NCBI GenBank assembly: GCA_002722615.1
Contig: PBMQ01000037.1
Coordinates: 34,958 to 98,957, forward strand
Source: Methanobacteriota archaeon
GTDB lineage: Archaea; Thermoplasmatota; Poseidoniia; Poseidoniales; Poseidoniaceae
Length of the DNA: 64,000 nucleotides
Direction of reading: 5' to 3'
Made by a program: the position numbers and the translations under genes. Shown piece after piece: positions 5,821 to 63,252 of this stretch. Every line of letters begins with the position of its first letter. Position 1 is the stretch's first letter. A model generated the notes under the pieces. The model was not told the DNA's origin, did no database searches, and saw nothing but the letters and a program-made list of their open reading frames with translations.

Positions 5821-5867
5821 AGTATGCTGGCGAAGAATTCATCATGACTAATCTCAGCGTGTGCTAC

Positions 5868-31899: not shown

Positions 31900-33009
31900 A
31901 TGGTCCGACAACAACGGAAGTTCAAGCCACGGGCAAGAACTTCTCGTCCATTGAATCTCGATTCAATTGGCGCTCGTGATTCACAAAAAATTCAACCTCC
32001 TATCGAGGATGGAATGTTTTGGAGAATACAACCCCCTCTTGCAACACGTTTGTACGAAAAGAGTGCTCTGGGTTATCGGAATGAGGACGGTTCCATTCGA
32101 TTAACAGCATCGGAAGTTTTGTTCTGCCATTGGCATCGTCATTTACCACTTCCAAGTGAGACTTGGCTTGAAAATGAACTTCAAAAGAATCCAAGACTCA
32201 TTTATGAGGCTATTATAATGGACGTCGGTCGAAACGGTGGCGAGATGATTGTTCCTACTGTGCATCGTCCTTCGAATCTTCAGATTGCTTGGGGCGTGCG
32301 GTGGCATCGTGATCGAAATCATTTGAAAGACAAGTATCAGGCCTCGGTTACTACTGCAACAACTCATGATGAACTTGATTGGCTTGCTTTGTTGGAATGG
32401 TGCAGAAAATGCATTGATTTTGAACTCGATTCGGAGTTGTTTGTCATTGATGATGAACTGGATGTTACCATGTACAAACTTGATTTGATTGAGCCCAAGG
32501 GAAACCTACTGTCATGGGAACAACTTGGAGAACATCACCAAGATGACTTTCTCAATTATTGGAACAAAAGGACATTGACAGAATCTGGAAGCTATGTTCG
32601 TGTTAATCAACCATGGCAATGGGATCAAATCGGAATAGATCACATGTCAGGTCGGGTCCTTCGCCATGAAGAGGATACATATGTGCAGCACATGATTACA
32701 CAAGAGGTTGAATCTTCCTCAGACTCAAAACTCATGCATGATTTACTGTCACGTGGATTGCTCTTGCGTCCAGGATTCAAGTACGGTTGTAGATGGAGAG
32801 TCTATGATGGGGATTTGAACAATTCACACGCTCCATGGTTGATTCAACCACGATTGGAAGCAGCGACTACATGGGAAGGTGTCTGTCTGAGTGTTCGTTT
32901 GGCGGAAGGGGTCCACAAGCAGTGGGTTTGCGCGATATATGATACTGGAAATTGGAATTATTTACGCATTCAGAGATGGTCGCCAGGTAGGAATACATCA
33001 ACTGAATAG
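31900..33009 (+). CDS. endA: tRNA-intron (splicing) endonuclease, long two-unit archaeal form
   Basis: The C-terminal catalytic unit LLSRGLLLRPGFKYGCRWRVYDGDLNNSHAPWLIQP matches the EndA motif G..V..G.K(F/Y)G.D(F/W).VY....HS.(Y/W)L(V/I). An N-terminal degenerate unit (ASEVLFCHW...) plus the ~370-aa length suggests the alpha2-type. The true start may be MFWRIQPP (~32014). Confidence 0.75.
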   Translation: MVRQQRKFKPRARTSRPLNLDSIGARDSQKIQPPIEDGMFWRIQPPLATRLYEKSALGYRNEDGSIRLTASEVLFCHWHRHLPLPSETWLENELQKNPRLIYEAIIMDVGRNGGEMIVPTVHRPSNLQIAWGVRWHRDRNHLKDKYQASVTTATTHDELDWLALLEWCRKCIDFELDSELFVIDDELDVTMYKLDLIEPKGNLLSWEQLGEHHQDDFLNYWNKRTLTESGSYVRVNQPWQWDQIGIDHMSGRVLRHEEDTYVQHMITQEVESSSDSKLMHDLLSRGLLLRPGFKYGCRWRVYDGDLNNSHAPWLIQPRLEAATTWEGVCLSVRLAEGVHKQWVCAIYDTGNWNYLRIQRWSPGRNTSTE

Positions 33010-35042
33010 TCATCTCTTTCTTCTGCTTGTTTGACGCTACTTTTCTTACTAAAGTAAGATGATGCAAACCATGCAGCAAATAATATGAAAAAGGTTGAAA
33101 GTACAAGAGATTGATTTCCAACCAATGGATTTGAATTACTGCTCTGTGCCTTTAGTTCGACTTTGATATCCCATTGTTCACCATTGAATGTCTGAAGATG
33201 AATGGTTCCTAAGACATACATATTTTCTTGCAACAATCCTTGCGGGTCGATTTCGATAAGAATAGTACCGTTTCCGTTTTCGACTTCGACTGATGATGGG
33301 GTTGTTGCAACACGTGAGAGAGGGCCATCAATATCGATAGAAAATTCCCCATTTCCATCACCTAACCCCGCATATGGTAAACGAATTGTTGTAGGTTCAA
33401 CAACGTTGATGTTTGATAGCAATTTCATTTCAGAGGGTAATGGTATCGAACCCAAGGTGGTTACTGAGGTCTTGATATCAAAAGCATCATCATCACAATA
33501 GATGAATCCTGAAAACGTTGCAGTTGAATCCAACGCCCCTTGGGAGCTGAATGTACCAAAGTGAGTGGAATCAGGCGTGCTTGAATTTGAGAATACAATT
33601 GTTCTTCCATCAGATCCAGTGAGGTCACCCCAACATTGAACAAGATTATTCCCAGGTGAGATTTCCAATGATAAGGGCTCGTCTTGGAGAAGTGTTGATC
33701 CAAAATCCTCTAAGTCGATTTTATGTTTTGGCGAACAATTAATTGAATGGAATTCAACAATCCATTTATTATTGGATTCTACAATTTTAGCGTACCAAGG
33801 GACAAGAACTCCATCATGGTCACGAATCTGGATTCCTCGTTCACCAAACTCATCTCCTGGTTGAAACAAATCACTTGCCACACCGTCGTTAATTCCTCTG
33901 AGTTGTTCTTGGTTTCCATCGGCTTCAATAGTTTTCAGATATGGGCGTCGTTGATCGATGTTCATGGCATTGTGAGCAGTGTCTCCTGCTGCTAAATCTT
34001 CCAATAAAACAAGAACACCATCTCCTGGTAAGGATTCATCGTAACCTTCTTGAGTTCGTAATTCAATCCAAACAAATTCATTTTTGTCTATTTGGATTCG
34101 TATGCGATCACCACCTGCAAACCTGGATTCGAGTGGAATTGAAGGACCTATGCATGGTCCTTGAGAATTATCTGGCCATTCTAAGATAACATCGCGAGTA
34201 GGTCCATGTCCAATGGCATTCATAGTCGGTCCTGTTGGAAGGGATGGCGTATCTCCCCCACCGTTCCAATTTCCACTTGCCATGATGTCCCACACTCCGA
34301 TTCCTTTCCATGAACCAGTATATCCTGAATCATGAACTGGATAAAGGTCGAAAGCACCAAATTGATGCATCATTTCATGCAGAATTGTTCCAAATCCATT
34401 ACTCCCATGACGCATTGATGACATGGTGTAATGTTCAAATGAGACATCTGCTTTTTTTATGGGTTCAATAAACGAAGTGAAATGAGACCATATTCGATTC
34501 GAAGATCCGCCTCCTTGTTCCTGTGCGATAGTGGAATGAAGGATGAGGAAGCGATCTACGACTCCATCATCGTTCAAATCATACGACTGAAGATTTTCTT
34601 CGTTCATTGATTCAACTACAAATTCAGCAAGCAGAGCAGGAAGAAATTGACCTCCATCCCCATAATCTCTACCATTTGAACCATCTGCCCCATAGGCTGA
34701 AAGCCCTTTAGGTGCACGAAGAATTCTATCGTGTACTGAAATATCAATTGAAACTTGTTGGCCTGTGGCCTGGCTGAAATAATCCTCTGAGTGCTGCTTT
34801 AGTTCATCTTGGGTATCGGAAATTGCATTAGTTGTAAGAGGGTTTGAATCAAAATCAACCAATACAACAAGCCACGATTCATTCTGTTGCAATCCTACGA
34901 GTGGTGCTGGATTGTCTTGATTGGTATTGTCTTCAAGTTGAAAGAGCTCATTGATTTGATCTGAATAGAGATGAGACAAGAGAGCCAAGGTGATGCACAG
35001 CACCATCCCTATCGCTTGAATCCTTTTCCCCATACTTATCAC
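32970..35042 (-). CDS. Secreted M6-family (immune-inhibitor-A-like) zinc metallopeptidase with a C-terminal TM anchor
   Basis: Signal peptide (IQAIGMVLCITLALLSHLYS). GTILHEMMHQFGAFDLYP (HExxH...DLY) and GVWDIMASGNWNGG are M6/InhA signatures. C-terminal anchor LVLSTFFILFAAWFASSYFSKK. Confidence 0.7.
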   Translation of the reverse strand: MISMGKRIQAIGMVLCITLALLSHLYSDQINELFQLEDNTNQDNPAPLVGLQQNESWLVVLVDFDSNPLTTNAISDTQDELKQHSEDYFSQATGQQVSIDISVHDRILRAPKGLSAYGADGSNGRDYGDGGQFLPALLAEFVVESMNEENLQSYDLNDDGVVDRFLILHSTIAQEQGGGSSNRIWSHFTSFIEPIKKADVSFEHYTMSSMRHGSNGFGTILHEMMHQFGAFDLYPVHDSGYTGSWKGIGVWDIMASGNWNGGGDTPSLPTGPTMNAIGHGPTRDVILEWPDNSQGPCIGPSIPLESRFAGGDRIRIQIDKNEFVWIELRTQEGYDESLPGDGVLVLLEDLAAGDTAHNAMNIDQRRPYLKTIEADGNQEQLRGINDGVASDLFQPGDEFGERGIQIRDHDGVLVPWYAKIVESNNKWIVEFHSINCSPKHKIDLEDFGSTLLQDEPLSLEISPGNNLVQCWGDLTGSDGRTIVFSNSSTPDSTHFGTFSSQGALDSTATFSGFIYCDDDAFDIKTSVTTLGSIPLPSEMKLLSNINVVEPTTIRLPYAGLGDGNGEFSIDIDGPLSRVATTPSSVEVENGNGTILIEIDPQGLLQENMYVLGTIHLQTFNGEQWDIKVELKAQSSNSNPLVGNQSLVLSTFFILFAAWFASSYFSKKSSVKQAEERDDYSVDVFLPGDHL

Positions 35043-36391: not shown

Positions 36392-37411
36392 TCACACCAA
36401 GTCATGGTGTTCTGGTTCAGCACGTGCTTGAACGATTGTTCGGTATACACCAAACAAGGCCCATAATGTCAACATACCAAGGACAAATGTATATCCCCAT
36501 GGTTGTCCATTATCAACAGCCCAACCAAACGCAAGGAGTAAACCAAGCGAAAGGATACCTCTTCGAATACCTTGTGGGACCGCGAGTCGCATGTCCAAAT
36601 GCTTGGGACCTCCTCCAAATCGACGCTCGTAGAACTCTCCTTGAACGACTGCTCCGACAAGAATGATTGCTAGCGTAGCCCAGTAGAACAGATTACCATT
36701 GGTAAAGAAATCATCAGCGATTTCTGCTTGCCTTTCTGCCTCAAGTGCCTCAGGGTTCTCTTCGGCTACAAACAGGGATTGGAAATCTCCGACGCTAATT
36801 GTTCGTAGTACGAGGTTTTCTTCATCATCATTTGTCATGGTTTCTGGCGATGAGATGAAGAACGAGAGTAGATTCCAGTTGTCACCTTCGTTAGCCCCGT
36901 TGAGACCATCAACTGCGTTTCCAGCTAGGGAGAACGAGACATCTCCAACATCGGATGAGGGTGCGGTCCAAGTTACAATCCAATCGTTGCTTGGCGCTGT
37001 TTGAGATACTGCGCCTGGTTCTGAACCGTCAGTATCTTGGACGATTTGGGATCCTTCCCCTGCAGTAAATGTTCCAACACCATAGTCTGTTAGGAGGAAG
37101 CCGCCATTCTCATAGGAGGCATGTTGAAGGTTCACTGTAAATTCATAGGACTCTCCTACAGAATATGCTCGAGGGACGCCCGAGATTGAGACGACTACAT
37201 CGTTTGAAGGTACACCATCGCCGTGGCAAGTACATCCTGTTTCTACGGTGAGGCCTCCGTTGATTGGATTGACCCAAGGAGGGCCGTTTGGGTTGGCCAC
37301 AACAGGTGCGAGAAGGCAAATAGACAGGAGCAAAATGAGAAGTGTTCTCGATTTCATAATATCCTCTCTACTTCTGCCACTCCAGTTCATGCTTTCAACG
37401 TTGCTTTTCAC
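36392..37411 (-). CDS. Secreted beta-rich protein with a CxCH motif and two C-terminal TM helices; function unknown
   Basis: Signal peptide (MKSRTLLILLLSICLLAPVVA). The mature N-terminus is NPNGPPWVNPINGGLTVETGCTCHGDG. An acidic Gly/Asp-rich linker follows. Two TM helices (LFYWATLAIILVGAVVQ, ILSLGLLLAFGWAV...FVLGMLTLWALFGVY). Confidence 0.45.
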   Translation of the reverse strand: MKSNVESMNWSGRSREDIMKSRTLLILLLSICLLAPVVANPNGPPWVNPINGGLTVETGCTCHGDGVPSNDVVVSISGVPRAYSVGESYEFTVNLQHASYENGGFLLTDYGVGTFTAGEGSQIVQDTDGSEPGAVSQTAPSNDWIVTWTAPSSDVGDVSFSLAGNAVDGLNGANEGDNWNLLSFFISSPETMTNDDEENLVLRTISVGDFQSLFVAEENPEALEAERQAEIADDFFTNGNLFYWATLAIILVGAVVQGEFYERRFGGGPKHLDMRLAVPQGIRRGILSLGLLLAFGWAVDNGQPWGYTFVLGMLTLWALFGVYRTIVQARAEPEHHDLV

Positions 37412-43784: not shown

Positions 43785-46133
43785 TTACCGACGTGATAGT
43801 TTCTTCTTACGCTCTTTTTCAAGAATGGTGCATCGGCGGATTTGCTCTTTTGCACGCTTAACCTCGGCATCGGATAATCCACGAGGAATTGACTGTTCAT
43901 AGCACTTTATGGCGTCTGGGAATCGTTCCATCTCAGCATATGCTGTGCCCATATTGTACAATGTTTGTCCACGTACATTGGATGGATCAATCATCATTGC
44001 TTTGTGATATGATTCAACACACGCTGGGTATTCTTCGAGGAAATAGTAAGCATTCCCACGACCATTTAGAATTCGAATTACCATTTGATTGTCGTTGGCA
44101 AATGATGGTAATGCTCTGTCAAAGGATGAAAGTGCTTCTCTGTACTTTCCATCTTCCATCAACTGTATTCCTTGGTTGTACCATGAAATGTCTTGATTCG
44201 CAACTGAACTTGAATTCGCTGAAACAATGGGGTTCACTGAAACCATTGCAGTTGCGTCCAATGCTGCTTTCGCCAAATCAACCTCGACGTTATCTTGCTG
44301 AACTATTTCTTTCCTAACTGGTTCAATTGGTATTAACAAAAGATCATTTGCTGATGTTGTTTCTTGTAAAGGTGCCTCAGAAACATATGGCTCTTCGATT
44401 GGAACGACAGCTGGTTGTTCCAAAGCCGGAGGTTCAGGTGCAACTGCGGGAGGTGTTGACGTAGGTGGTGGAGGAGGGTTATCGAATTGAGGTTGTTCAT
44501 GAGACCCAGATTCCAATTCTCTTGCCTTCGTATGACAACGTTGCGCAGTTTCAAGATCACCCGCTGCTTCCAAGGATTTTGCGAGTCCTTTCCACAAGAT
44601 TGGATTGGATTTATCGGTTTGAATGAGTTCTTTCCAAACGGTAACTGCTTCGATATTATCTCCTTTGAGAGTCAGTGCCCGAGCCCGTTCAATGGATGGC
44701 CCGGGACTGAGCAAATCAAGTGCGTATTGTGCCAATTGAGGGGCTTCGGGCATTGTTGGTGGAATTCCAGTGATGTACTCAAGAACCTCGACTTCGGTTT
44801 CCCCGCATTGCAGTAAATTTTCGATAATTTCGTTTCGAAGTTCAACGTCATCTTGTGATTCAAGTAGAATCATACCGTGTGAGATAACAGTTCCAATGTC
44901 GTTCTCTTCCTGAGCATATTCGATGAGTTTACGTCGTGCCTTGGCGTGTCGTGAATCGAGTTCAATCGTTGTCTCAAATGCATTTATTGCTCCGTTTTGG
45001 TTGTCATTTCTCGCGTAGAGGCTTCCTAGATTGTACCATCCTGATGCCACTGTCTCATCGAGTTTGGTTGCATGTTCTAGTGCTGCTATAGCATGAGTAT
45101 CGAGTTCCATACGTGCCATAGCCCCACCAGCAATTCTCCAGGCACCAGCATGATGTGCGCCGATTGTTTTGAGATGAGGTTTCAACAGTGCGAGCGCTTT
45201 CTTTGGTTCACCTTGTCGAATAAGTTCGGTTGCTTCATTTGTTAATTTGTCGAGATTAATTTCATCAACGACAGGTCGCTGCTCAATTTCAGTTTCTATT
45301 GATGCCTCAATTTTTTCCTCAATGATTTGAGTCGCTGCAACAACATTAGCAGCACTTTTCAGTTCTTCTTTATCCAGGTGACCGTCACCATCGAGATCGT
45401 GGTGAGCGGCTTCAGCAAGAATTGCCTCTGAATCTTCGACGCCTGTCTCTTCCATCACAACGCTAAGTGTTGATTCTTGATGTGTCGCTTTGGTTACTTT
45501 TGATTCAATTTCATCAGGAACTTCTTCGACTGGTGCGTGTTTGGTGCGATTGAGTACATCGGTTAGACTTGGGTGTCCAGGGAAGAATTCAAGTCCTCTG
45601 CGCGCCATAGCGGCGGCTCCAGCATCATCTCCAATACGATCCAAAAGGATGGCTAGATTCGCTGTAGCAGGTGCATGGTCTGGGTTGAGGTCGAGACAAA
45701 TTTGGAAGGCTTGACGAGCTCCACGAGCATCTTGCTGTGCTTCAAGAAGAACGCCTCGATTGAACCATGCCATGTCGCTTGATGGGTCAAGAGCTATCGC
45801 CTTGTTGAAGGCCACTAGTGCTTCTTGAGGGGAATTCGACCGAGATTTGTATTCCCCTTCATCAATGAGGGATTGAACTTGCTCTTCAACAGATAATTCT
45901 TCTGAAGTGTCAGGAGCGGATGGTTCAGGAGTGGGCTCAGGGAGTGGTTCCTCAGAAGCGTCTTCATTGAATTCTTCCGACGCTTCTTGGCCCACCATAG
46001 ATCCAAGTCCCGCAGAACGCAAAGCATCCGCCATGTCGCTGATTAAGGCATTCGACATGTCCTCGTCCTCGGTACTCATCGTCATCTCCCATCCTTTGGC
46101 ATGACTGTCATGGTATAAGCATAGTTGCTTCAT
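43785..46133 (-). CDS. Large acidic TPR-repeat protein
   Basis: Many 34-aa TPR units (AWFNRGVLLEAQQDARGARQAFQICLDLNPDHA, GWYNLGSLYARNDNQNGAINAFETTIELDSRHA, LYNMGTAYAEMERFPDAIKCYEQSI ...). Asp/Glu-rich N-terminus. Confidence 0.65.
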   Translation of the reverse strand: MKQLCLYHDSHAKGWEMTMSTEDEDMSNALISDMADALRSAGLGSMVGQEASEEFNEDASEEPLPEPTPEPSAPDTSEELSVEEQVQSLIDEGEYKSRSNSPQEALVAFNKAIALDPSSDMAWFNRGVLLEAQQDARGARQAFQICLDLNPDHAPATANLAILLDRIGDDAGAAAMARRGLEFFPGHPSLTDVLNRTKHAPVEEVPDEIESKVTKATHQESTLSVVMEETGVEDSEAILAEAAHHDLDGDGHLDKEELKSAANVVAATQIIEEKIEASIETEIEQRPVVDEINLDKLTNEATELIRQGEPKKALALLKPHLKTIGAHHAGAWRIAGGAMARMELDTHAIAALEHATKLDETVASGWYNLGSLYARNDNQNGAINAFETTIELDSRHAKARRKLIEYAQEENDIGTVISHGMILLESQDDVELRNEIIENLLQCGETEVEVLEYITGIPPTMPEAPQLAQYALDLLSPGPSIERARALTLKGDNIEAVTVWKELIQTDKSNPILWKGLAKSLEAAGDLETAQRCHTKARELESGSHEQPQFDNPPPPPTSTPPAVAPEPPALEQPAVVPIEEPYVSEAPLQETTSANDLLLIPIEPVRKEIVQQDNVEVDLAKAALDATAMVSVNPIVSANSSSVANQDISWYNQGIQLMEDGKYREALSSFDRALPSFANDNQMVIRILNGRGNAYYFLEEYPACVESYHKAMMIDPSNVRGQTLYNMGTAYAEMERFPDAIKCYEQSIPRGLSDAEVKRAKEQIRRCTILEKERKKKLSRR

Positions 46134-46183
46134 GGTTAGGTTAGAACAATGGATTCATCTATTGGCTGGTTGTGGGATTTTTT

Positions 46184-46735
46184 ATGGCGGATACTCCACT
46201 CAAAGTGATGGGACTCTCAGGGTCCATTGGTCGACAATCAAAAAATGGGATGTTGGTTGACTTGGCGCTACAAAAGGCCAAGGAACATGGCGCAGAGGTT
46301 CATTTTTGGGATCTCAAAGAAAAACCATTGCCACTTGTTGGTTCAGACGGTTGTTGGAGTGACCCAATTGTCAAAGAATTCCAAGAAATGGCCTCTTCCT
46401 ATGACGCATTCCTTGTCTCTTCACCAGAATATCACGGAACAATGTCCGGTGTTATGAAAAATACATTTGACTGGGTTTACGAACAACATATTGGCGGTAA
46501 GGTCTTTGGATTGATGTCAACTCTTGGCGGTATGTCCAATTCAAACACATTGAACCACATGAGAATTATGCTTCGATGGCTACATGCAAATCCTGTGTCC
46601 CAACAGTTAGCTGTTGGACATGTCAAGGAAGCATTTGACGAAGACGGTGGGCTCGTTGACAAATCTGTTGACGAACGATTACAAACACTTGTCGAGTCTG
46701 TCCTTAAAACCGCAACAATGTACAAAAATTCGTGA
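46184..46735 (+). CDS. NAD(P)H-dependent FMN reductase (flavodoxin-like)
   Basis: LKVMGLSGSIGRQSKNGMLVDLA ... FLVSSPEYHGTMSGVMKNTFDW is the FMN_red family pattern. Confidence 0.75.
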   Translation: MADTPLKVMGLSGSIGRQSKNGMLVDLALQKAKEHGAEVHFWDLKEKPLPLVGSDGCWSDPIVKEFQEMASSYDAFLVSSPEYHGTMSGVMKNTFDWVYEQHIGGKVFGLMSTLGGMSNSNTLNHMRIMLRWLHANPVSQQLAVGHVKEAFDEDGGLVDKSVDERLQTLVESVLKTATMYKNS

Positions 46736-46739
46736 TTTC

Positions 46740-47489
46740 ATGAATGCAAATCGTCCCTCATTTGAAGATGAGTTTGGAGGTTCATACCTTTTGGTTGAGC
46801 CTGGTCAATTCAGATTTGGGGATGAGGTAGGTTCGGGACATCCAAATGAGAGGCCACTCATTGAGGCGGAAATATCGGAGCCCTTCTTCATGGGTGTGCG
46901 TCCTGTCACCCAAGCACATTGGTCTGCCATTATGGGTTCCAATCCTTCCAAATTTCAAGAAGGTTGGAGCGCTGGTCTTCGTCCAGTTGAATCGATTACC
47001 TTTTTTGAAGTACAGACGTTTTTGAATCGACTAAACGAACAAAATCGTGAATTCATAGGTTTCAGAGGTCGGTGGAGATTACCATCGGAGCTAGAATGGG
47101 AGTATGTTGCTAAAGCCGGTTCCTCAACACGTTGGTCCTTTGGAAACAAGGATTCAGAATTAGATGCTCATGGTTGGCATGCTGGAAATAGTGGGGCCAC
47201 CACTCGCGAAGTGGGTTCTAAGAAAGCGAATCAATGGGGATTCCATGACTTTCATGGACTCATCTATGAAATGACAGAAGATGCATGGTCTTCTTCTCAT
47301 GAGCATCATGATGGCACGCAGGCATCAACTTCTAGGGCTGACTCGAGTCATATCGTTGCAAAAGGTGGTTCTTGGTTTACAGAATCGGATTCAACACGTT
47401 CATCCTCTCGTAGAAAGGTAGGTCAGGATGAACGTCGAGATGGGATCGGTTTACGTCTTGTATGGGAGCCGGTAGAACCTAGCAATTAA
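46740..47489 (+). CDS. Formylglycine-generating-enzyme (FGE-sulfatase / SUMF1 / EgtB-like) family protein
   Basis: RPVTQAHWSAIMGSNPSKF, WRLPSELEWEYVAKAG, GFHDFHGLIYEMTEDAW and AKGGSWFTESD...GLRLV are FGE-sulfatase domain signatures. The start MNANRPS at 46740 lies just after the FMN reductase stop. Confidence 0.75.
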   Translation: MNANRPSFEDEFGGSYLLVEPGQFRFGDEVGSGHPNERPLIEAEISEPFFMGVRPVTQAHWSAIMGSNPSKFQEGWSAGLRPVESITFFEVQTFLNRLNEQNREFIGFRGRWRLPSELEWEYVAKAGSSTRWSFGNKDSELDAHGWHAGNSGATTREVGSKKANQWGFHDFHGLIYEMTEDAWSSSHEHHDGTQASTSRADSSHIVAKGGSWFTESDSTRSSSRRKVGQDERRDGIGLRLVWEPVEPSN

Positions 47490-48043
47490 TCTCCAACTCG
47501 AACATCCACATCGGCATCAAAACTTACCTCATCTGGCAAGTCTTGGCCTTGAGGGACGATTCCAGGTTGTGTATTCCATTCAACGGATTCCGGGCTGTTG
47601 ACTACCTTCATGACATTTAACCCTACAAAGACCTGAATGCCAGCATGGGTTCGATGAACCACTGGTGAAACCTCTTCATGAAATGTAGCATTCATGTGTT
47701 TACAAATTTCAGCAAAGGTACGTTGACCATTGCAGAGTTCCCATAGCACGCTATTCTTGTCAAGCAATGGTCTTCGAAGTTCCTTTGGTGCTCTCATCAG
47801 TTTTGCGAAGATACGCTCAATCCGCCCGAATGTCTTTTCAAAACGTAGTACTATTGTTTTGCCAGTGGACCCCTCGACATCAGGATGTGGTCCCGAATCG
47901 CCCGTTCGACACCACCATACGGGTAGGCGAACAGGATATTTTTCGGCCAATGGATGGTTTTCTAAATCGACTAAATCCATGAAATCCCTCACATGTCTGA
48001 CCATGTCCACCAAACGAGACTCAGCATTGAAACGACTCCGCAT
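47486..48043 (-). CDS. Hypothetical protein with a PqqD-like (RiPP-recognition-element-like) segment
   Basis: LLDKNSVLWELCNGQRTFAEICKHMNATFHEEVSPV..DVQVFVGLNVMKV resembles the PqqD-family core (LNetaa.IWelcDGkrTv.eI...L...f). Tentative. Confidence 0.4.
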   Translation of the reverse strand: MRSRFNAESRLVDMVRHVRDFMDLVDLENHPLAEKYPVRLPVWWCRTGDSGPHPDVEGSTGKTIVLRFEKTFGRIERIFAKLMRAPKELRRPLLDKNSVLWELCNGQRTFAEICKHMNATFHEEVSPVVHRTHAGIQVFVGLNVMKVVNSPESVEWNTQPGIVPQGQDLPDEVSFDADVDVRVGD

Positions 48044-48183
48044 AATGCTGAGATACGAATAACTTCTCTTCGCTTACCGAATTTGTCCAGATACCATGTT
48101 AGGACACCGAAAAATGCTACAGCAACCCAAAGAAAATACCAGATTGGGTTCTCTTGGACCATGTAGTGCCATTCGCATACACA

Positions 48184-51100
48184 TCAAGGCTGTTTCCCTA
48201 AACGGTCTAGGTATTGTTGACCGTAATGGGTCCACTGTTCCATACTCCACCCTGCAGGTAATCCATCAGGGGGCAAAGGTGGATTTGTGGCAGAATGAAC
48301 AGCTGGTTCTCCTGTTTGATGTGCAGTTTCAACGAAGACTTGTTGAGTGATTGGTGGACCTGCAACGAAGGTGTCTTCTACATGTTCATCCATTCCAAGT
48401 CTTTGCTTTCTAATGATCAACAGTATTGCAACTAGTATCGCTACACCTAGGCCACTTGCTATGAGTGTCGGACCATTGAGGTTCGATGCAAAAAATGAAT
48501 TGTCTTCACTTGGTTTTACAAAATTAAGATATCGTGTTTCAGCGAATCCTATTTCGCCATCAATTGTTGATGCAGACAGGACAATTTCCCCTTCATAAAC
48601 ACCTCCCAACCGTTGTATTTCGCATCGTATGTCTTTGAGCGATTCAGAATTACGGGCATACGGTAAAGACGTATTCATGACATCACCACTTGCAGTTAAC
48701 ATGCCATCACACATAACTTGCCAGTTGTCAGGATAGGCAAAAGAGATGGATATATCCTCTGCTTGGGTAGAGAAACTCGTAAGATTTACCCACGCAATTC
48801 CAGTTGATTCAATAGAATCATTTCCTAAGTTCGACAAACTCAACTCCACTTTACGTTGTTGATTCACGGTAATGAGATTTTGATGTTCTATCCTCACAAT
48901 ATCTCCTACGAGATCCTGACCACCTTCAACAGTTGTCGTAATGACAATTCGGGTGTTGAGGGGTACATCATCACCAATAACAACATCGATGAAGATCAGT
49001 TTACTTGAACCTGCACTCATTGGGAAGGTTAGTGTTTCACCTTCTTCAGCAGTCGGTCCACCTACACCGGCAGTTAGGAATGCAACAACTCCAGTCGTCG
49101 GCGGTGAAGTGGACAATTCGAATTGTATATCCATCGATGATTCCAAAGCATTTCCTACATTGGTCAACGTACCATCAAGTCGTTGGGTTGAACCAACCAT
49201 AGCATGGATGTCCAATACAGATCCATTGTATTCTGGGAATTTTACACTTCCAGTAATCATATCAACAGAAGCATCGTTGTCATCGGGATGGATGTCATCG
49301 CCCTCTGTATTGACGCGAATGGAAATCGTATGGAATTCACCTGCAGCTTCTGTCATTGGTACATGAAGAAGCAGTTCAATTTCGATTCGTTCATCACCTG
49401 TATACGAGACACCCAACTCTATTGTCATAGTTTCAAGAATGACTCCGTCCATTCGAATGGAATATGTCCATGAGGATGGTGCATCCACAAGCGACACTGT
49501 AACAGATGATGGCCCGTTTCCATTGTTGATGATCTCTGCGCCAAGAACAGTCGTGCCGCCGGGAACAATAACTGAAGTTGATGAAAGAATACTGATGCTA
49601 GCATCGTACAATGTCTCAATCATAATGTTGCTATAATCGGGGCCAGTATAACTCATGCCGCTACGAGTGGATGTAAGAATGGGATTAATTTTGGGCGCCA
49701 TGTCTTTTGCTTGAGCATTCTCAGGGGCAGTTACTGAAACATAAAACGAGGTCGATGCCCCTGGATTGATAACAATGGGCGGACGTTGTTCTTTTTCTAT
49801 GGTCCAGCCGATTGCGGGTATATATTCAACATCGAATTCAAAACTATCCTGTCGAGTTGCTTGGTTTGTTACGGTGTAACGAATCTCCACTCGGTCTCCT
49901 GCAGATATCATCGTGACATCATTTTCGTCAATTGAAAGTTCTATGAGAGCATTAGAGATCATTGATGCTTGGACTGCAATTGCCTCAACTGTACTACGGC
50001 TTGTATCGTTTTGCGACGTCATTGTGAACCAATATTCTCCCGTTTTGTCCGGTGTTTCACCTTGGGGTACAGTCATTACAAAGTTTACAGTATTAATCTG
50101 TCCCGGGATGAGCCGTACAGAAGGAGGTTGATCGAAGGCGAGGTTGACGCTCCAGCCAACATCGAGTGATTTTGACTGTACATCCAAATCGAAAACATCC
50201 GTTGCTTGTCCTATGTTTTCAACTTCTACCACAAATGCGCATGATGACCCAGGCGCACATTTCGGTTTAATTTCTGGAACATGGATGTGCGGAATCCGAT
50301 CTGCTGATACTTGGAACTGCATACCTTCCTGAACGGAAAAACCAGGATTCTGAAGGCTTGATGCCATAAACGTGAGCGGTACGAATCCTACAGTAGCGTT
50401 CACACTCGGTTGAAGTTTGACATCTATTTGCCGAGATTCACCCGGTAACAGTCGTACGCCTGTGCTAGGATTGATACCTGCTCCACTCGGGAATGAGAAG
50501 GCGACATTCCAATCGTTAGGTAAATTGGTAACTGTTGGGAGGATTGAATCGCTAATGTTCCCTGTGTTGGTTAATTCCAAACGAATCTCACCCCAAGAAC
50601 CTGGAATCGCTCCGTTTGTAAAGACCCCTGATACATCAAGATTGTATTCCTCATTCCGTGCTGATTGATCGTAAACAATAACGAAATCATCGAACCAATA
50701 TCCTATATCAGTTCCAGTAGAGTCGCTTGTGAACGAGAATTTGAATCTTGAATTTGAATGGAAATGAGTTGCTGCGTCTGATGGTATCAAAGGAGTTGTA
50801 TGACCCATATGAGTGTTGGATATAGTCTTCCAATTGGACAGTGTGGCTCCAACAGTTCCAACAATGTTGGCTAATTCGTCCCAATTCCCTTGGTTGTCCA
50901 GTGCAGATACTTTCATCGAATCGTTCGGTTGGGCACTTCCTGCGTAAAAGAATGTCAGACCGTTGGTTCGAGATGGGTTTTGAACAATGTCGCTCATGTC
51001 CCAAATAGGAGTCATCAACTCCGTTTGCAAATTATTTGTGTAACTTCCTGTCTGACCTTGTCCAATATGACAGGATTGGCCCATACTAAGAGCGGTATCC

Positions 51101-51702
51101 ATACTTGTTCCCCAGTATGGTCCAGCGTTCCATCCTACCAACGATGTGCATGTGAAATAATAATTTGCGACGGTATAATGGCGATTGAAATTGTTGTTTG
51201 AAGGATTGTCATCCACACCTTGGAAGGAAGGAGAAACAACAAGTGTGTGATTTCCAGAGTAGTTGACATATACATTGTAAAAAGTGGCTGTCCCTTGTTC
51301 GCTTGATGACAAACTGTTCATTGTTACCGTTCGATTAGACAATTCAAATCTCTCATATTCGTTATGGAGAATAAGTAACTGGACAGTGATAATTCCAGAT
51401 GCAGTACTTCCATCATTTCGAACCGTCACTTCAATGTCCATTGGAGTCGAGTTAACAGTGTCAACCACATACAAATTCTTTGGCCGATCAAATCCAAGTA
51501 TTGGGTGATTGGATGAAAACATCTTGTATTGTGATTCATCATTAGGGTTCGAATATTGAATCGAGACATCGGTTGCAGAAAGGTCAACACCAGTATTTTT
51601 TGATGAAGAATGAGATTGCTCAACCGTTGAAAATTCAGTGCTTGAAATCGGCTGAAGTATCAGCAACAATATCAGAAGCGACACCACACCAATCCTTGGC
51701 AT
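48184..51702 (-). CDS. 1172-aa cell-surface protein with repeated CARDB/Ig-like beta-sandwich domains and a C-terminal TM anchor
   Basis: Signal peptide (VVSLLILLLILQPISS). Repeated (V/L).N.G...(S/D) CARDB-type strands (VTVRNDGSTASGIITVQLL, LELTNTGNISDSILPT, VEVENIGQATDVFDLDV, TLTNVGNALESSMDI). C-terminal anchor LIASGLGVAILVAILLIIRKQR plus a Pro-rich cytoplasmic tail. Confidence 0.6.
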   Translation of the reverse strand: MPRIGVVSLLILLLILQPISSTEFSTVEQSHSSSKNTGVDLSATDVSIQYSNPNDESQYKMFSSNHPILGFDRPKNLYVVDTVNSTPMDIEVTVRNDGSTASGIITVQLLILHNEYERFELSNRTVTMNSLSSSEQGTATFYNVYVNYSGNHTLVVSPSFQGVDDNPSNNNFNRHYTVANYYFTCTSLVGWNAGPYWGTSMDTALSMGQSCHIGQGQTGSYTNNLQTELMTPIWDMSDIVQNPSRTNGLTFFYAGSAQPNDSMKVSALDNQGNWDELANIVGTVGATLSNWKTISNTHMGHTTPLIPSDAATHFHSNSRFKFSFTSDSTGTDIGYWFDDFVIVYDQSARNEEYNLDVSGVFTNGAIPGSWGEIRLELTNTGNISDSILPTVTNLPNDWNVAFSFPSGAGINPSTGVRLLPGESRQIDVKLQPSVNATVGFVPLTFMASSLQNPGFSVQEGMQFQVSADRIPHIHVPEIKPKCAPGSSCAFVVEVENIGQATDVFDLDVQSKSLDVGWSVNLAFDQPPSVRLIPGQINTVNFVMTVPQGETPDKTGEYWFTMTSQNDTSRSTVEAIAVQASMISNALIELSIDENDVTMISAGDRVEIRYTVTNQATRQDSFEFDVEYIPAIGWTIEKEQRPPIVINPGASTSFYVSVTAPENAQAKDMAPKINPILTSTRSGMSYTGPDYSNIMIETLYDASISILSSTSVIVPGGTTVLGAEIINNGNGPSSVTVSLVDAPSSWTYSIRMDGVILETMTIELGVSYTGDERIEIELLLHVPMTEAAGEFHTISIRVNTEGDDIHPDDNDASVDMITGSVKFPEYNGSVLDIHAMVGSTQRLDGTLTNVGNALESSMDIQFELSTSPPTTGVVAFLTAGVGGPTAEEGETLTFPMSAGSSKLIFIDVVIGDDVPLNTRIVITTTVEGGQDLVGDIVRIEHQNLITVNQQRKVELSLSNLGNDSIESTGIAWVNLTSFSTQAEDISISFAYPDNWQVMCDGMLTASGDVMNTSLPYARNSESLKDIRCEIQRLGGVYEGEIVLSASTIDGEIGFAETRYLNFVKPSEDNSFFASNLNGPTLIASGLGVAILVAILLIIRKQRLGMDEHVEDTFVAGPPITQQVFVETAHQTGEPAVHSATNPPLPPDGLPAGWSMEQWTHYGQQYLDRLGKQP

Positions 51703-51731: not shown

Positions 51732-52592
51732 TTATTCGTCTGCAGAGTCTTGGTTTGCTAATTGGAGTTTCTGTTCATTACGTCGATCTTTGGCTCTAGC
51801 GGCGAAATACACCGTAAATGAAGGGATTAAGACCATAGAAAAGCAACCTACTACTGCAGCAAGCGCCCACAAGAATTCGGTAGCAGCATCAATTTCAAAC
51901 ACCTCGATGCTCGAGAATTCCTCGTTGACTGTGTAGAGATTGACTTGCGGAGCAACTGCTTTGTCACCAGGTTCAGTAATTTGTATGATGACGACTGAAG
52001 GATTGTGTTCGTAGAAGATTTTCTCACGAGCAAGGTCTTCAGCCTCGCTAATTGTTTCTGCAAAAACAGTGCCGTTGGAACGTCGTGCAGGATTGACGGA
52101 CGTCAGGGATTGGATGCTAACTTCGCTTGAATCGGCTTCAACTTCAATGGATTCTCCATATGAGCAGTGCTCTGAGCAGCGGAAATCAACGGTTTTTCCA
52201 TCAACGACGACCTCAGCGTCGTCTATTCCTAGGAATGGATGAGAATACAGCTTGCCGGCATTGGTCATTTTCACGACTGCACCGCTTGCAAGATCATCGA
52301 CAGTCATGTTGACCCAAGTAAGGTTTTGACCATTTGTGGGTACGCTTGCAGTCCAAGTAGTTTCGTTGTTTTGAACCACTTTTGTTAGTTCAATGCCATC
52401 ATATGCCGTGTCGGTTGCTTCTGTTTCATAGATGTAATAACTCGGTGATATTGTTGCTCCGTACACTGCATAGGACAGCAACACGATGAGTGTGAGTGAC
52501 AAACCAATGAGGGTTCTCAATAGGTTTGGATTCTGAGCAAGAGCCTTCTTCATCACTCCTCCCAAAACGACCCCATTCAAGAACACTTGCAC
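51732..52592 (-). CDS. Hypothetical secreted/membrane protein (N- and C-terminal TM)
   Basis: 286 aa. An N-terminal signal/anchor (LIGLSLTLIVLLSYAVYG) and a C-terminal TM (LWALAAVVGCFSMVLIPSFTVYFAARA). Confidence 0.45.
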   Translation of the reverse strand: MQVFLNGVVLGGVMKKALAQNPNLLRTLIGLSLTLIVLLSYAVYGATISPSYYIYETEATDTAYDGIELTKVVQNNETTWTASVPTNGQNLTWVNMTVDDLASGAVVKMTNAGKLYSHPFLGIDDAEVVVDGKTVDFRCSEHCSYGESIEVEADSSEVSIQSLTSVNPARRSNGTVFAETISEAEDLAREKIFYEHNPSVVIIQITEPGDKAVAPQVNLYTVNEEFSSIEVFEIDAATEFLWALAAVVGCFSMVLIPSFTVYFAARAKDRRNEQKLQLANQDSADE

Positions 52593-55289: not shown

Positions 55290-55739
55290 TCACGCATACC
55301 AGGAGGCCCAACTTTTTGGGGTTTCACGTACATGCATAGCAACCAATCGCAATCGATTTCCATATGCTGTCTGGATATGTGGTTGGACTTGCTCGTAAGC
55401 CCACTTGGCAAGATTTTCTGCAGTTGGAATGAAAGGAACAACGACTGTTCGGTGGTCGGATGGAAGAGCTTCTAGTAATGTTCTCGCTTCCTGATCTCCT
55501 TCGTATACAACAAATGCATGATCAACAACATCATGGATGTGGATTGTAAGGATTTCACTTACATCACTGAAATCCATTAGCATACCTTCCTCACTTACGC
55601 CTGAAGTTTCCACAATGTCCCCTTCAATTTCTGCTTCGAATCGATATCGATGCCCATGAAAATGTCTGCACTTGCTCTTATGATTTGGTACTCTATGTCC
55701 AGTATCTGTTTCGACATATCTGCGAATTCTTGTTGTCAT
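55290..55739 (-). CDS. queD: 6-carboxy-5,6,7,8-tetrahydropterin synthase (PTPS family)
   Basis: CRHFHGHRYRFEAEIEGD has the Zn-binding His and the catalytic Cys/His of QueD/PTPS. Confidence 0.85.
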   Translation of the reverse strand: MTTRIRRYVETDTGHRVPNHKSKCRHFHGHRYRFEAEIEGDIVETSGVSEEGMLMDFSDVSEILTIHIHDVVDHAFVVYEGDQEARTLLEALPSDHRTVVVPFIPTAENLAKWAYEQVQPHIQTAYGNRLRLVAMHVRETPKSWASWYA

Positions 55740-56119
55740 TCAATCACCTCAAATTTCATTGCAGCACTATTGATGCAATATCGCTCACCACCGTGTTTTC
55801 GCGGCCCATCATTGAAGACATGCCCAAGATGTGCATCGCATGTCCCACATCGGACTTCAACGCGAGTCATGCCATGGGATGTGTCGATAATTCGTTTGAT
55901 GTTAGCATCATGATGTTCTGTATGAAACGCAGGCCAACCGCAACCGGAATCAAATTTCATTTGATCGGTAAACAGTTGGGTTTCGCAAACAATGCAGGAA
56001 TAGTTACCTTTTCGTGTTTCTTTGTTCAATGTACCAGTAAATGGCCGCTCAGTTCCATTCTGCTGAGTGACGTAAAATGATATATCGGATAGTGATGAAA
56101 TACGGTCCTCAAATCTCAT
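55736..56119 (-). CDS. msrB: Peptide-methionine (R)-S-oxide reductase
   Basis: FYVTQQNGTERPFTG...GNYSCIVCETQLFTDQMKFDSGCGWPAF...HGMTRVEVRCGTCDAHLGHVFNDGP...RYCINS has two CxxC Zn motifs plus the catalytic Cys. MRFEDR at 56119 is the likely start (track ORF 55736..56182). Confidence 0.85.
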   Translation of the reverse strand: MRFEDRISSLSDISFYVTQQNGTERPFTGTLNKETRKGNYSCIVCETQLFTDQMKFDSGCGWPAFHTEHHDANIKRIIDTSHGMTRVEVRCGTCDAHLGHVFNDGPRKHGGERYCINSAAMKFEVIE

Positions 56120-56904
56120 TATACCCCTCCTGTATTGTGTTCTGATTCTATCCTTAATGCATGTTTCAATACAGTGTCCCAAGAGTCTTGATATTCGATA
56201 GGGTCCTTACGACCAATAGCATGGAATGCAAGGATTCGCTCAATATCTGAACCACTCTTACCTGAACTTTTTCCATCAGCGTCTGGATTGTATGATGTGA
56301 TGGTATTTTTGAGAACAACATCAAATTCGAGACCGAGCATAGCGCATGATTCTATGGCATCTTCAAGAATGGATGTTTTGTCTCCATGAAGATAGGGTAG
56401 ATCAAAACCAACACGGTTGCTGTCCCAATTTCCAATTTCGAATGCATGTTGTAATGCATCGTAAAATTCAGGCCGACAATCTGGATAAATAGCATGATCA
56501 CCGCTATGTACGCCAAGAGCAAGAACGACATCTTCCCCAGTACGCTTTGACTCAGACAGTGCAAACCCGTACAGAATTGATGCAAATATTGCATTTCGAT
56601 TCGGAACAACTGTTTGTTTCATTTGGTCTTCCTCATAATGACCAAGGGGAACATTTTGTTCCTTGGATGTTAATGCTGAATCAAATAAGGACATTGCTGG
56701 GGATAAATCTACGATATGATGGCTGACTTCCAAACCACATTCCATGCACATGAATATGGTGGATTTTGCACGTTCTAATTCGATTGAATGTTTCTGCCCA
56801 TAGTTGTAAGAGATACACACCGCTTTGTATCCTTGTGCAAGATAATGCATTAAGAGGCATGTGGAATCCATTCCACCACTAAGAGCCATGACTACTGTTT
56901 TCAT
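56119..56904 (-). CDS. queC: 7-cyano-7-deazaguanine (preQ0) synthase
   Basis: MKTVVMALSGGMDSTCLL (PP-loop), YNYGQKHSIELERA, VPNRNAIFASILYG and YPDCRPEF match QueC. Confidence 0.9.
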   Translation of the reverse strand: MKTVVMALSGGMDSTCLLMHYLAQGYKAVCISYNYGQKHSIELERAKSTIFMCMECGLEVSHHIVDLSPAMSLFDSALTSKEQNVPLGHYEEDQMKQTVVPNRNAIFASILYGFALSESKRTGEDVVLALGVHSGDHAIYPDCRPEFYDALQHAFEIGNWDSNRVGFDLPYLHGDKTSILEDAIESCAMLGLEFDVVLKNTITSYNPDADGKSSGKSGSDIERILAFHAIGRKDPIEYQDSWDTVLKHALRIESEHNTGGV

Positions 56905-57551
56905 AGGATTCCCATCCATTTATGCGTTTGCAAAGACAATCTCCATCCGATGTGTTCTTTTACGACCTGTTCCGTTTCCTGAAACATTTTACCATTTTCA
57001 GATACTGATGCAGAATCGATATAGCATGGTTGAAGGAAATGATGGCTGAATCCTGATTTAAGTACATCATACATCTCTAAATCCTGGCCACAGTATACTA
57101 CTTTCAATTCATCACCGTTTCGTTGTCGAATGACTGAGTTAGGATAGAGCTGATCTTTCGGAGAAATACAAATCCAATCAATAAGACCTTCTGGAATCAA
57201 GAGCGTCCCGTTGCTTTCAATCGAGAGATTGTATCCTCTTTTTTTGAGCAGACGATGGAGTGGCCATAGGTCATGGAGCATCGGTTCCCCTCCTGTAAAG
57301 ATAATGCGCTTGCAATTGAATTTCATAATTTCAGCAAGGATGTCGAGTGCAGTCATCGATTCAAATGTGTTAAAATCGGTATCGCACCAACTGCATCGAA
57401 GGTTACATGTTCCGAATCGCACGAAAACATGAGGCATACCAGCATGAAAACCCTCGCCTTGGACAGAATGAAAAATCTCAACGATTGGATATTCCACGGC
57501 AAGGTCTGACGCATCATCGCCAATAATTTCGCCGGAGCGATTGCAATCCAT
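56901..57551 (-). CDS. queE: 7-carboxy-7-deazaguanine synthase (radical SAM)
   Basis: IVEIFHSVQGEGFHAGMPHVFVRFGTCNLRCSWCDT is the QueE Cx14CxxC-type cluster context. Confidence 0.85.
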   Translation of the reverse strand: MDCNRSGEIIGDDASDLAVEYPIVEIFHSVQGEGFHAGMPHVFVRFGTCNLRCSWCDTDFNTFESMTALDILAEIMKFNCKRIIFTGGEPMLHDLWPLHRLLKKRGYNLSIESNGTLLIPEGLIDWICISPKDQLYPNSVIRQRNGDELKVVYCGQDLEMYDVLKSGFSHHFLQPCYIDSASVSENGKMFQETEQVVKEHIGWRLSLQTHKWMGIL

Positions 57552-57556
57552 TTATT

Positions 57557-58123
57557 TCAACTCGAATTTTCAATTAGTTGCATAAGTTCGTTACGTGCTT
57601 CTTGCTTATCGAAAAACACGCCACGCATTGCACTAGTCGTCATGATTGCATTTTGTTTGCGAACTCCACGACATCTCATGCATCCATGTGAAGCTTGCAC
57701 AATAACAGCTGCACCTAGTGGGTTAAGGTGGTTAACCAAATCATTTGCTACATCGTTGGTGATTCGTTCTTGGTTTTGCAATCTCAATGCATGATGATCC
57801 ACAATTCGAGCAAGTTTTGAAATTCCAACAATCCGGTCGACTGGAATGTATGCAACATGGGCCCGTCCGCTAAATGGTTGCAAATGATGTTCGCATGTTG
57901 AATGGAATTCAATATTACTAAGCAACACAATTCCATCGTATCCTTCTGCATTAAATGTGGCTTGTAGTATGGTTTCTGCATCTGAATGATATCCTGCGAA
58001 GACTTCCTCCCATGAGTCGATTACTCGGCGCGGGGTGTCTGTCAAACCTTCACGTTTAGGATCCGAATCGAGGTATTTGAGTAGTGTAAATACCGCATGT
58101 TCTGCTTCTTCTCTTGTTGTCAT
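57557..58123 (-). CDS. folE: GTP cyclohydrolase I
   Basis: GLTDTPRRV, FHSTCEHHLQPFSGRAHVAYIP, GISKLARIV and IVQASHGCMRCRGV match FolE type 1. Confidence 0.9.
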   Translation of the reverse strand: MTTREEAEHAVFTLLKYLDSDPKREGLTDTPRRVIDSWEEVFAGYHSDAETILQATFNAEGYDGIVLLSNIEFHSTCEHHLQPFSGRAHVAYIPVDRIVGISKLARIVDHHALRLQNQERITNDVANDLVNHLNPLGAAVIVQASHGCMRCRGVRKQNAIMTTSAMRGVFFDKQEARNELMQLIENSS

Positions 58124-62733: not shown

Positions 62734-62774
62734 GCTGCTTCCATGCAGAGACGATTCATCAAGCCTCGCATTGC

Positions 62775-63248: not shown

Positions 63249-63252
63249 ATGA

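Follow-up and report, generated by a model that had tools for sequence, protein, structure and literature searches.

The genes considered here lie side by side in a 64-kb window (the whole stretch of DNA that was analysed) and encode a protein of the FMN reductase family (FMN_red), a protein of the formylglycine-generating enzyme (FGE) fold, a PqqD-like protein, a 57-aa membrane protein and a giant surface protein. The host of the window is a Marine Group II archaeon (Poseidoniales). The window contains an archaeal signal recognition particle RNA, and the closest homologues of the studied genes are labelled Poseidoniaceae, Euryarchaeota or Thermoplasmatota in their sources. A sequence-only reading had proposed that the FMN reductase, the FGE-like and the PqqD-like genes form one maturation module for a surface protein or a small peptide. 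We consider it likely that the genes belong to two separate units and not to one post-translational modification module, and we lean towards the region consisting of two independent, convergent units, A on the plus strand and B on the minus strand, that happen to adjoin each other in Poseidoniaceae. No evidence points to a common protein-modification machinery across the FMN_red, FGE-like and PqqD-like genes. The genes, including the one that borders unit A, are as follows.

46184..46735, plus strand: 183-aa member of the NAD(P)H-dependent FMN reductase family, from the gene that opens unit A (Pfam FMN_red, 7.5e-34, residues 7-147)
46740..47489, plus strand: cysteine-free protein of the FGE-sulfatase fold, 249 aa, second gene of unit A (Pfam FGE-sulfatase PF03781, 8.4e-34)
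51732..52592, minus strand: 286-aa membrane protein, hydrophobic in its N- and C-terminal segments, from the gene that opens unit B and lies 29 nt upstream of that of the giant (no Pfam family)
48184..51702, minus strand: 1172-aa surface protein (the giant) with a signal peptide, immunoglobulin (Ig)-like repeats (CARDB, NPCBM_assoc, FixG_C), a C-terminal transmembrane (TM) helix and about 75 aa of cytoplasmic tail
47989..48162, minus strand: conserved 57-aa protein with two predicted TM helices, directly upstream of the PqqD-like gene (no Pfam match)
47486..47980, minus strand: divergent protein, probably of the PqqD fold, 164 aa from M22 of an open reading frame (ORF) that stays open as far as 48043; its gene closes unit B
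43785..46133, minus strand: 782-aa TPR protein (Pfam TPR), divergent from the FMN_red gene across a 50-nt spacer

In unit A, the FMN_red gene stops at 46735 and the ATG of the FGE-like gene is at 46740, leaving a gap of 4 nt. Unit B runs from the 286-aa gene through the 1172-aa and 57-aa genes to the PqqD-like gene, with gaps of 29, 21 and 8 nt. The stop codons of the two units overlap (FGE-like TAA at 47487-47489 on the plus strand, PqqD-like TAA at 47486-47488 on the minus strand), which confirms the 4-nt overlap described earlier. The FMN reductase, the FGE-family protein and the convergent ORF also exist as described, and their family assignments were right, the first two by direct Pfam matches and the PqqD-like protein through its remote homologues. 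The idea that the three make up a single maturation module did not hold: they are on opposite strands and in separate operons, and the 57-aa/PqqD-like pair is kept without the FGE-like gene in related archaea. The TPR gene is a syntenic neighbour in the relatives described below (Marine Group IIa, L001 and L172) and is assigned here to neither unit.

Eight loci of Poseidoniaceae (Marine Group IIa, MGIIa) were retrieved for the synteny count, and two loci, L001 and L172, are of the Thalassarchaeaceae type (MGIIb-type). The FMN_red gene followed by the FGE-like gene, facing the convergent PqqD-like gene, is kept in all eight MGIIa loci, where the FMN_red orthologues are 66-86% identical and at the same position. 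This plus-strand operon was seen only in Poseidoniaceae. Conservation of the trio beside surface-protein genes was found in MGIIa (8/8 loci), but MGIIb and more distant clades keep only the 57-aa/PqqD-like pair. In L001 neither FMN_red nor FGE-like is nearby. In L172, the slot by the TPR gene (L172 3966-5455) is occupied by an FMN_red/Flavodoxin_2 protein, 25% identical to that of the window, and then by a PI-PLC-like (Rv2075c_cat) gene, not an FGE-like one. Separately, the M6-TatC-334aa-PNT block that the window also has is found in L001 a short way downstream of the PqqD-like gene, which suggests that the region was inverted between MGIIa and MGIIb. Outside these archaea, contigs with FGE-like genes served as a negative control for partner genes; among the matches listed were only distant FGE-like proteins (at most 37% identity), bacterial except for one Methanosarcina locus and with no Poseidoniales. 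In none of 80 such loci of other phyla, among the matches listed, did tblastn or phmmer reveal, within 8 kb, a gene of the FMN_red, ArsC-like or PqqD-like kind.

The FGE-sulfatase domain of the second gene of unit A spans residues 16-242 and profile positions 5-255 of 255 (Pfam), and it is the domain common to FGE/SUMF1 and EgtB/OvoA. Aerobic FGEs, human and bacterial, have two Cu(I)-binding catalytic cysteines near the C-terminus. The protein here, unlike them, has no cysteine at all, and so no Cu(I)-Cys2 site. Pfam found no significant domain other than FGE-sulfatase in its 249 aa, hence none of the N-terminal DinB-like iron-binding domain of EgtB, OvoA and SenA. No NCBIfam model was matched at its cutoff (the best was PvdO), and the scores against EgtB (36.9, cutoff 360), OvoA (21.5, cutoff 400) and SenA (24.7, cutoff 420) were 10-20 times below the cutoffs. 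Lacking both cysteine and DinB, the protein can perform neither FGE-type cysteine oxidation nor EgtB/OvoA-type C-S bond formation, the two activities offered for it earlier. That it is not a formylglycine generator we regard as practically certain.

The surroundings of the gene also differ from those of FGE/SUMF1, in that neither a client sulfatase nor a CxPxR motif is near. The absence of a sulfatase, already remarked upon in the sequence-only reading, was confirmed: no Sulfatase family member was found among the scanned window ORFs, the scan covering ORFs of at least 120 aa taken as genes, up to 60375 (it did not extend to the 181-aa ORF at 29289-29834 or to three more at 61159-63951). The suggestion that CxPxR or (C/S)xAxR motifs might be present in the neighbouring surface proteins was not borne out. 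Both CxPxR and [CS]x[PA]xR are missing from the giant, from the 286-aa and TPR proteins and from seven of the eight other neighbouring proteins, large or small, that were checked. The sole [CS]x[PA]xR match is SGPRR in the unrelated protein at 5817-8921, with 0.6 matches expected by chance.

In the PDB, the FGE-like protein matched TvpA (2y3c, 1.1e-25), PvdO (5hha, 5e-13), ToxD (7spq) and PorK, and no true FGE or EgtB at E<1e-3. Like the non-catalytic FGE-fold proteins PvdO, TvpA, ToxD and PorK/GldK, to which it is detectably similar, it is a stand-alone FGE/C-type-lectin-like fold; those proteins presumably also lack the Cu-binding cysteine pair of FGE. Unlike them, it is a cytoplasmic protein without a signal peptide, is translationally coupled to an FMN reductase and has its own near-invariant pocket motif, WFTESDSTRS. 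The motif, GGSWFTESDSTRS, is near-invariant across 14 orthologues at 54-73% identity (alignment A3), the exceptions being Ala for the first Ser or Tyr for the Phe, each in single sequences. The motif probably lies where human SUMF1 has its catalytic cysteine pair. Its near-invariance indicates that the protein is functional in some way. The match to TvpA, the variable protein of a diversity-generating retroelement (DGR), raised the idea that the FGE-like protein might be a DGR variable protein too. This was ruled out: the window has no template repeat, and the C-terminus, unlike that of TvpA, is conserved in orthologues and not hypervariable. Repeats involving 46740-47489 are absent from the window except for a 30-nt match at chance level, and no reverse transcriptase domain was found among the scanned ORFs.

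The FMN_red domain of the first gene is flavodoxin-like and spans the whole protein, as in the NAD(P)H-dependent FMN reductases ArsH, SsuE/MsuE, YhdA azoreductase and ChrR/YieF. Unlike the named subfamilies, however, the protein is an equivalog of none of them. Its top NCBIfam match is ArsH (TIGR02690), at 75.9 bits against a cutoff of 292, and its nearest solved structures are ArsH (2q62, 3.8e-16), PA1204 (1rtt) and the YhdA azoreductases; it is about as similar to PA1204 and YhdA as to ArsH. The N-terminal extension of ArsH is missing, the match starting at ArsH residue 37 (2q62_A) and at profile position 26 of 219 (TIGR02690). No partner monooxygenase is at this locus, where the downstream partner is the FGE-fold protein instead.

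A third gene belongs to the operon in some relatives. Four of the eight MGIIa loci (L004/L005 and L008/L009) have an ArsC/Spx-family gene, co-directional with the FGE-like gene, between that gene and the convergent PqqD-like gene. In L004/L005 the ArsC/Spx-family gene is intact (L004 8489-8821, motif HNPRCSKSR); in L008/L009 it is without the N-terminal cysteine region (L008 6830-7123), and it is absent from the window, L006/L007, L010 and L011. The gene looks as if it is being lost from the operon. Its presence brings up the possibility that unit A is an operon for detoxification in arsenic or redox stress, in which ArsH-like and ArsC-like reductases would be combined with an FGE-fold binding protein. 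ArsH is the best NCBIfam and PDB relative of the FMN_red protein, and the ArsC-family gene of L004/L005 has the HNPxCxxSR catalytic-cysteine motif and matches TIGR00014 at 8.7e-18. However, neither score comes near its equivalog cutoff (ArsH 75.9, cutoff 292; ArsC 64.9, cutoff 106), the ArsC-like gene is degenerate in L008/L009 and missing from the window, no arsenite pump or ArsR is nearby among the scanned window ORFs, and a protein free of cysteine is a poor binder of As(III). A literature search found no link of an FGE-like gene to ars operons, nor anything on FGE-like genes paired with FMN reductases. We consider an arsenic operon unlikely.

Unit A may rather be a cytoplasmic redox pair, in which a generic NAD(P)H:flavin/quinone-type reductase would work with its FGE-fold partner. 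The partner, resembling PvdO, ToxD and TvpA, would bind a ligand through a polar pocket at the place where true FGE has the Cu-binding cysteines, and the unit would make neither formylglycine nor C-S bonds. The intermittent ArsC-like third gene hints at a role connected with thiols, arsenic or redox stress, but the scores are well below the family cutoffs.

The ORF of the PqqD-like gene is 185 aa long, and it was given in that form in the sequence-only reading. The ORF is real, as is the PqqD-like segment then quoted from it (residues 100-124), but it is over-extended. The start is most likely at 47980 because most homologues, which are 163-164 aa long, begin at the equivalent of M22; this gives a protein of 164 aa. 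That start lies 8 nt after the stop of the 57-aa ORF with GAGG just upstream, and the first 21 codons of the 185-aa ORF (47981-48043) overlap the 3' end of the 57-aa ORF. Extension of the protein by gene callers to 172-185 aa is limited to the closest relatives.

By itself, the PqqD-like protein matches Pfam PqqD (PF05402) below threshold, with E=0.02 and 15.7 bits where the cutoff is 23.4; the match covers residues 100-124 of the 185-aa ORF. Its family membership comes instead from its relatives. A profile search with 19 Poseidoniales homologues (alignment A1) retrieved 238 relatives among 1.84 billion representatives, most of them aligning over a core of about 90 residues. In an alignment of the window protein with 77 remote relatives, 65 of the 78 sequences matched Pfam PqqD individually (best 2.6e-13), many also matched the NCBIfam PqqD, ScmD and lasso-PqqD models, and relatives are named "PqqD family protein [Thermoplasmatota]" by their sources. 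Alignment of the Poseidoniales family with the PqqD-positive clade by hhalign gave a probability of 98.2% (E=2.8e-14, 88 columns). The A1 profile searched against PDB sequences gave only a non-significant match, to PqqD 5sxy (E=0.56).

Structure prediction agrees with the profile results. AlphaFold2 with the shallow A1 alignment, which holds Marine Group II sequences only, gave an unusable model (pLDDT 52); the deeper alignment A6 (63 sequences), used in its place, gave one with pLDDT 91 and pTM 0.86. The order of elements in the model is β-β-β-α-α-α, the three strands followed by three helices of PqqD and of the RiPP recognition elements (RREs; RiPPs are peptides that ribosomes make and that are modified after translation) such as TbiB1 and the lasso-peptide B1 proteins. 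Unlike in these, there are an inserted helix (residues 53-62) and extra strands. The top Foldseek matches in the PDB are leader-peptide-bound lasso RREs, TbiB1 (5v1u/5v1v) and 6jx3_B, with TM scores of 0.62-0.71 normalised to the target. We are confident that the protein has a true PqqD-family fold, and the prediction supports, without proving, that the fold is RRE-like. The possibility that no RRE fold would be found, raised with the original proposal, did not materialise.

Having an RRE-type fold is not the same as belonging to a RiPP pathway. In an RRE-dependent RiPP cluster, the PqqD-like gene adjoins modifying enzymes, a precursor and transporters (PMC7470986). Such a cluster is not what was found, either among the scanned window ORFs or in related loci: no radical SAM maturase, YcaO, lanthipeptide or lasso enzyme is present. 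Neither a modifying enzyme nor a precursor-like peptide nor PQQ (pyrroloquinoline quinone) genes are near the PqqD-like gene, unlike in the known systems. Its neighbours in the window are surface and membrane proteins, the FMN_red/FGE-like pair, the TPR protein and housekeeping genes. As a separate observation, more distant PqqD-family proteins of Thermoplasmatota in L013 and L173 (PqqD at 6001-6417 and 7001-7558, respectively) lie between uncharacterised proteins of 276-332 aa and FtsX/ABC_tran (MacB-like) genes, with a 1500-1600-aa Peptidase_M28-FtsX fusion upstream. That context is different and possibly more RiPP- or export-like.

These results on the FGE-like and PqqD-like proteins can be set against the single module of the earlier proposal, in which the FMN reductase feeds the FGE-family enzyme and the latter, guided by the PqqD-like RRE, modifies the giant CARDB protein or a small peptide. 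The three genes do abut in all eight Poseidoniaceae loci examined, the PqqD-like protein appears to have an RRE-type fold, and the pocket motif of the FGE-like protein is near-invariant. However, with no cysteine and no DinB domain the FGE/EgtB-type chemistry is largely refuted, and no CxPxR-type motif offers itself in the neighbouring proteins. The FGE-like and PqqD-like genes are in different operons on opposite strands, with the ArsC-like gene between them in some MGIIa loci; the PqqD-like pair occurs without FGE-like in MGIIb; and, among the matches listed, the pairing is absent from the 80 FGE-like loci elsewhere. We regard the single module as very improbable.

Of all genes, that of the 57-aa protein shows the tightest linkage to the PqqD-like gene, and the pair is the evolutionarily stable core of unit B across Thermoplasmatota. 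The 57-aa gene immediately precedes the PqqD-like gene in MGIIa and MGIIb (L001 and L172), as well as in two distant Thermoplasmatota clades, one from freshwater and sediment (L012/L014) and the other represented by L113/L114. It is upstream in 9/9 loci with upstream sequence available (PqqD-like proteins at least 46% identical to that of L012). The family alignment (A7) shows the motifs FG(V/L)LTW..RN and T(R/K)L.A..GV.S. The earlier statement that the PqqD-like gene is directly downstream of, and co-directional with, the 1172-aa CARDB gene is right as to direction, and the link recurs in distant Thermoplasmatota, but the 57-aa ORF lies between the two genes and had been overlooked.

Of the small ORFs in 46100-48200, the 57-aa ORF is the only one that is both conserved and in otherwise non-coding DNA. 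The others were ruled out as precursor peptides; each is located within a real gene, and what looks like conservation is the shadow of the overlapping frame. A short ORF (<60 aa) of the kind that had been suggested as a precursor in this interval therefore does exist and is conserved, but it encodes a two-TM protein without a leader/core pattern. This bears on the idea of a RiPP-like pathway that has gone unrecognised, with the PqqD-like protein as its discrete RRE; the substrate would be the 57-aa product or another small peptide, and the enzyme would be encoded elsewhere. An RRE fold preceded immediately by a small conserved ORF is reminiscent of a precursor followed by its RRE, and orphan RRE-like proteins may belong to uncharacterised RiPP classes (RRE-Finder; PMC7470986). 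The two hydrophobic helices of the 57-aa protein are, however, conserved over its full length, unlike a conserved leader with a variable core, and neither an enzyme nor a dedicated transporter is consistently adjacent to the pair in any of the four clades (MGIIa, MGIIb, L012/L014 and L113/L114). The only radical SAM genes of the window, QueE-like and CofH/MqnC-like, are in housekeeping contexts. An unrecognised RiPP-like pathway is accordingly improbable.

RRE domains are structurally homologous to helix-turn-helix DNA-binding regulators, the main false positives in RRE searches (PMC7470986), so that the folds can be confused. The PqqD-like protein could then be a winged-helix transcription regulator of the surface-protein operon and the 57-aa protein its sensor or anchor, and the small Zn-ribbon protein with weak Elf1/Lar-like matches that comes after the PqqD-like gene in other clades would suit such a role. 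Against this, the homology is to PqqD families and not to DNA-binding families, the best structural matches are leader-peptide-bound RREs, and the protein is acidic (isoelectric point 5.7; 19 Lys and Arg against 24 Asp and Glu). A regulator is decidedly unlikely on these grounds.

Besides the 57-aa gene, what sets the PqqD-like gene apart from known PqqD/RRE genes is that the pair is usually beside genes of giant surface proteins. The giants adjoining the pair are 1100-1500 aa long, and in each a signal peptide and Ig-like repeats are followed by a C-terminal TM helix and a tail on the cytoplasmic side. That of the window also has an NCBIfam choice-of-anchor T match. Their orientation to the pair varies: co-directional and upstream in MGIIa, convergent in L172, divergent in the L012/L014 clade, and on both sides in the L113/L114 clade. 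Across MGIIa, the L012 clade and the L113 clade, the giants show no detectable mutual sequence similarity. Orthologues of the 286-aa gene keep its position throughout the MGIIa loci and also in L172.

The tail of the window's giant (48184-48260, minus strand, C-terminus) ends in GLPAGWSMEQWTHYGQQYLDRLGKQP. The motif GLPxGW(S/T)xEQWxxYGQ(Q/R)YLD is conserved in the tails of the MGIIa giant orthologues, which are only 37-70% identical overall. It was considered as a general sorting signal and ruled out as such, occurring only once in the window. In other clades, Zn ribbons are found at the tails or close by. They are fused to the cytoplasmic tail of the giant in L172 (7457-11221, C-terminus, single) and in L113 (6558-10271, C-terminus, double), also in L114; in the L012 clade a separate gene for a 59-62-aa CxxC...CxxC Zn ribbon comes right after the PqqD-like gene (L012 6426-6614; L014 6503-6682). 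No Zn-ribbon counterpart was found in the window. Four giants (L012 1467-5492, L014 651-5123, L113 947-4498 and L114 2347-4533) have long, charged cytoplasmic tails whose C-termini finish in a similar short amphipathic motif (VELIDDILKDLDK, VDVDSQISDLLSRLGP, VDVDAEISALLTRLQGP and YTVETLIKELEKFQ, respectively), reminiscent of short helical docking motifs.

The mechanism that we put forward for unit B is that the 57-aa partner would hold the acidic, cytoplasmic PqqD-fold protein at the membrane, where the latter would bind a linear cytoplasmic peptide in its groove by strand addition of the RRE type. The most plausible peptide ligand would be the conserved C-terminal tail of the adjacent giant. 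The PqqD-like protein may then act as a chaperone or adaptor in the biogenesis or anchoring of the giant, and not as the leader-peptide receptor of a RiPP pathway. Such a tail adaptor is a possibility that we advance tentatively. Extended across Thermoplasmatota, the pair of 57-aa and PqqD/RRE-fold proteins might form a membrane-associated module that recognises the cytoplasmic tails of giant, membrane-anchored Ig-repeat (S-layer-like) proteins, a non-RiPP use of the RRE in envelope biogenesis or anchoring, with Zn ribbons, tail-fused or from a separate gene, as a third recurring component. This wider proposal is speculative and to be taken with considerable doubt. A literature search found nothing on PqqD proteins in envelope contexts of Thermoplasmatota.

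Several points weigh against the picture of two units with a tail-binding pair in one of them. The Foldseek E-values of the PqqD-like model are weak (0.1-0.6), and the call of a PqqD fold therefore rests mainly on sequence-profile transitivity. Giants are common in this DNA, with five ORFs of more than 1000 aa in the 64-kb window, and the adjacency of pair and giant could be inherited regional synteny. L001 keeps the 57-aa/PqqD-like pair without a giant, and PqqD relatives at no more than 38% identity are in FtsX/ABC (MacB-like) clusters without a 57-aa gene, so that the family has more than one context. Finally, the coupling of FMN_red to FGE-like is tight and conserved throughout Poseidoniaceae, which could reflect a real functional partnership whose substrate could even be a protein.

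Most of the remaining window is housekeeping, with genes for a transhydrogenase, malate dehydrogenase, TatC, M6 peptidase, ribosomal proteins, a preQ0 cluster, a topoisomerase and others. No PADLOC model for anti-phage defence was matched in the window. The preQ0/archaeosine (7-deazaguanine) cluster is compact (55290-58123) and comprises PTPS/QueD, QueC, a QueE-like radical SAM protein and GTP cyclohydrolase I with an embedded MsrB (SelR). The QueE-like gene, not a peptide maturase, and the CofH/MqnC-like gene at 17496-18680 are the only two radical SAM genes of the window. Other proteins include one of 1053 aa (11382-14543) full of bacterial thrombospondin type-3 (DxDxDGxxD) calcium-binding repeats, which are also visible in the DNA as the direct-repeat families D1-D3 and D6, and a 1013-aa Cys-rich protein (18659-21700; 25 Cys) with a lipoprotein-like N-terminus and a C-terminal PNGase F domain (3.8e-20). 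Next to TatC are a 339-aa 'choice-of-anchor V' protein (36392-37411) and an M6 InhA-like peptidase (32970-35042) whose C-terminus carries a TM helix.

The general picture is that each protein is a member of a known superfamily and that none has the defining features of an FGE, of EgtB/OvoA, of ArsH, of a DGR target or of an RRE-dependent RiPP cluster. The FGE/PqqD maturation system, as posed, is not upheld, and the annotation "formylglycine-generating enzyme" for this Poseidoniales gene is misleading because the protein has no cysteine. What remains is a lineage-specific FMN_red/FGE-fold pair and a new contextual variant of the PqqD fold, both uncharacterised. In the former, an FMN reductase is translationally coupled in Poseidoniaceae to a cysteine-free FGE fold with a near-invariant polar pocket, which makes the pair a candidate for a new activity in the large and poorly understood non-FGE branch of the superfamily. 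In the latter, a PqqD/RRE-fold protein and a two-TM mini-protein form a fixed pair that recurs beside giant genes across Thermoplasmatota. Should the PqqD-like protein bind the conserved cytoplasmic tails, this would give the RRE fold a function beyond natural-product biosynthesis and provide a handle on how the envelope is built in these uncultured, globally abundant archaea.

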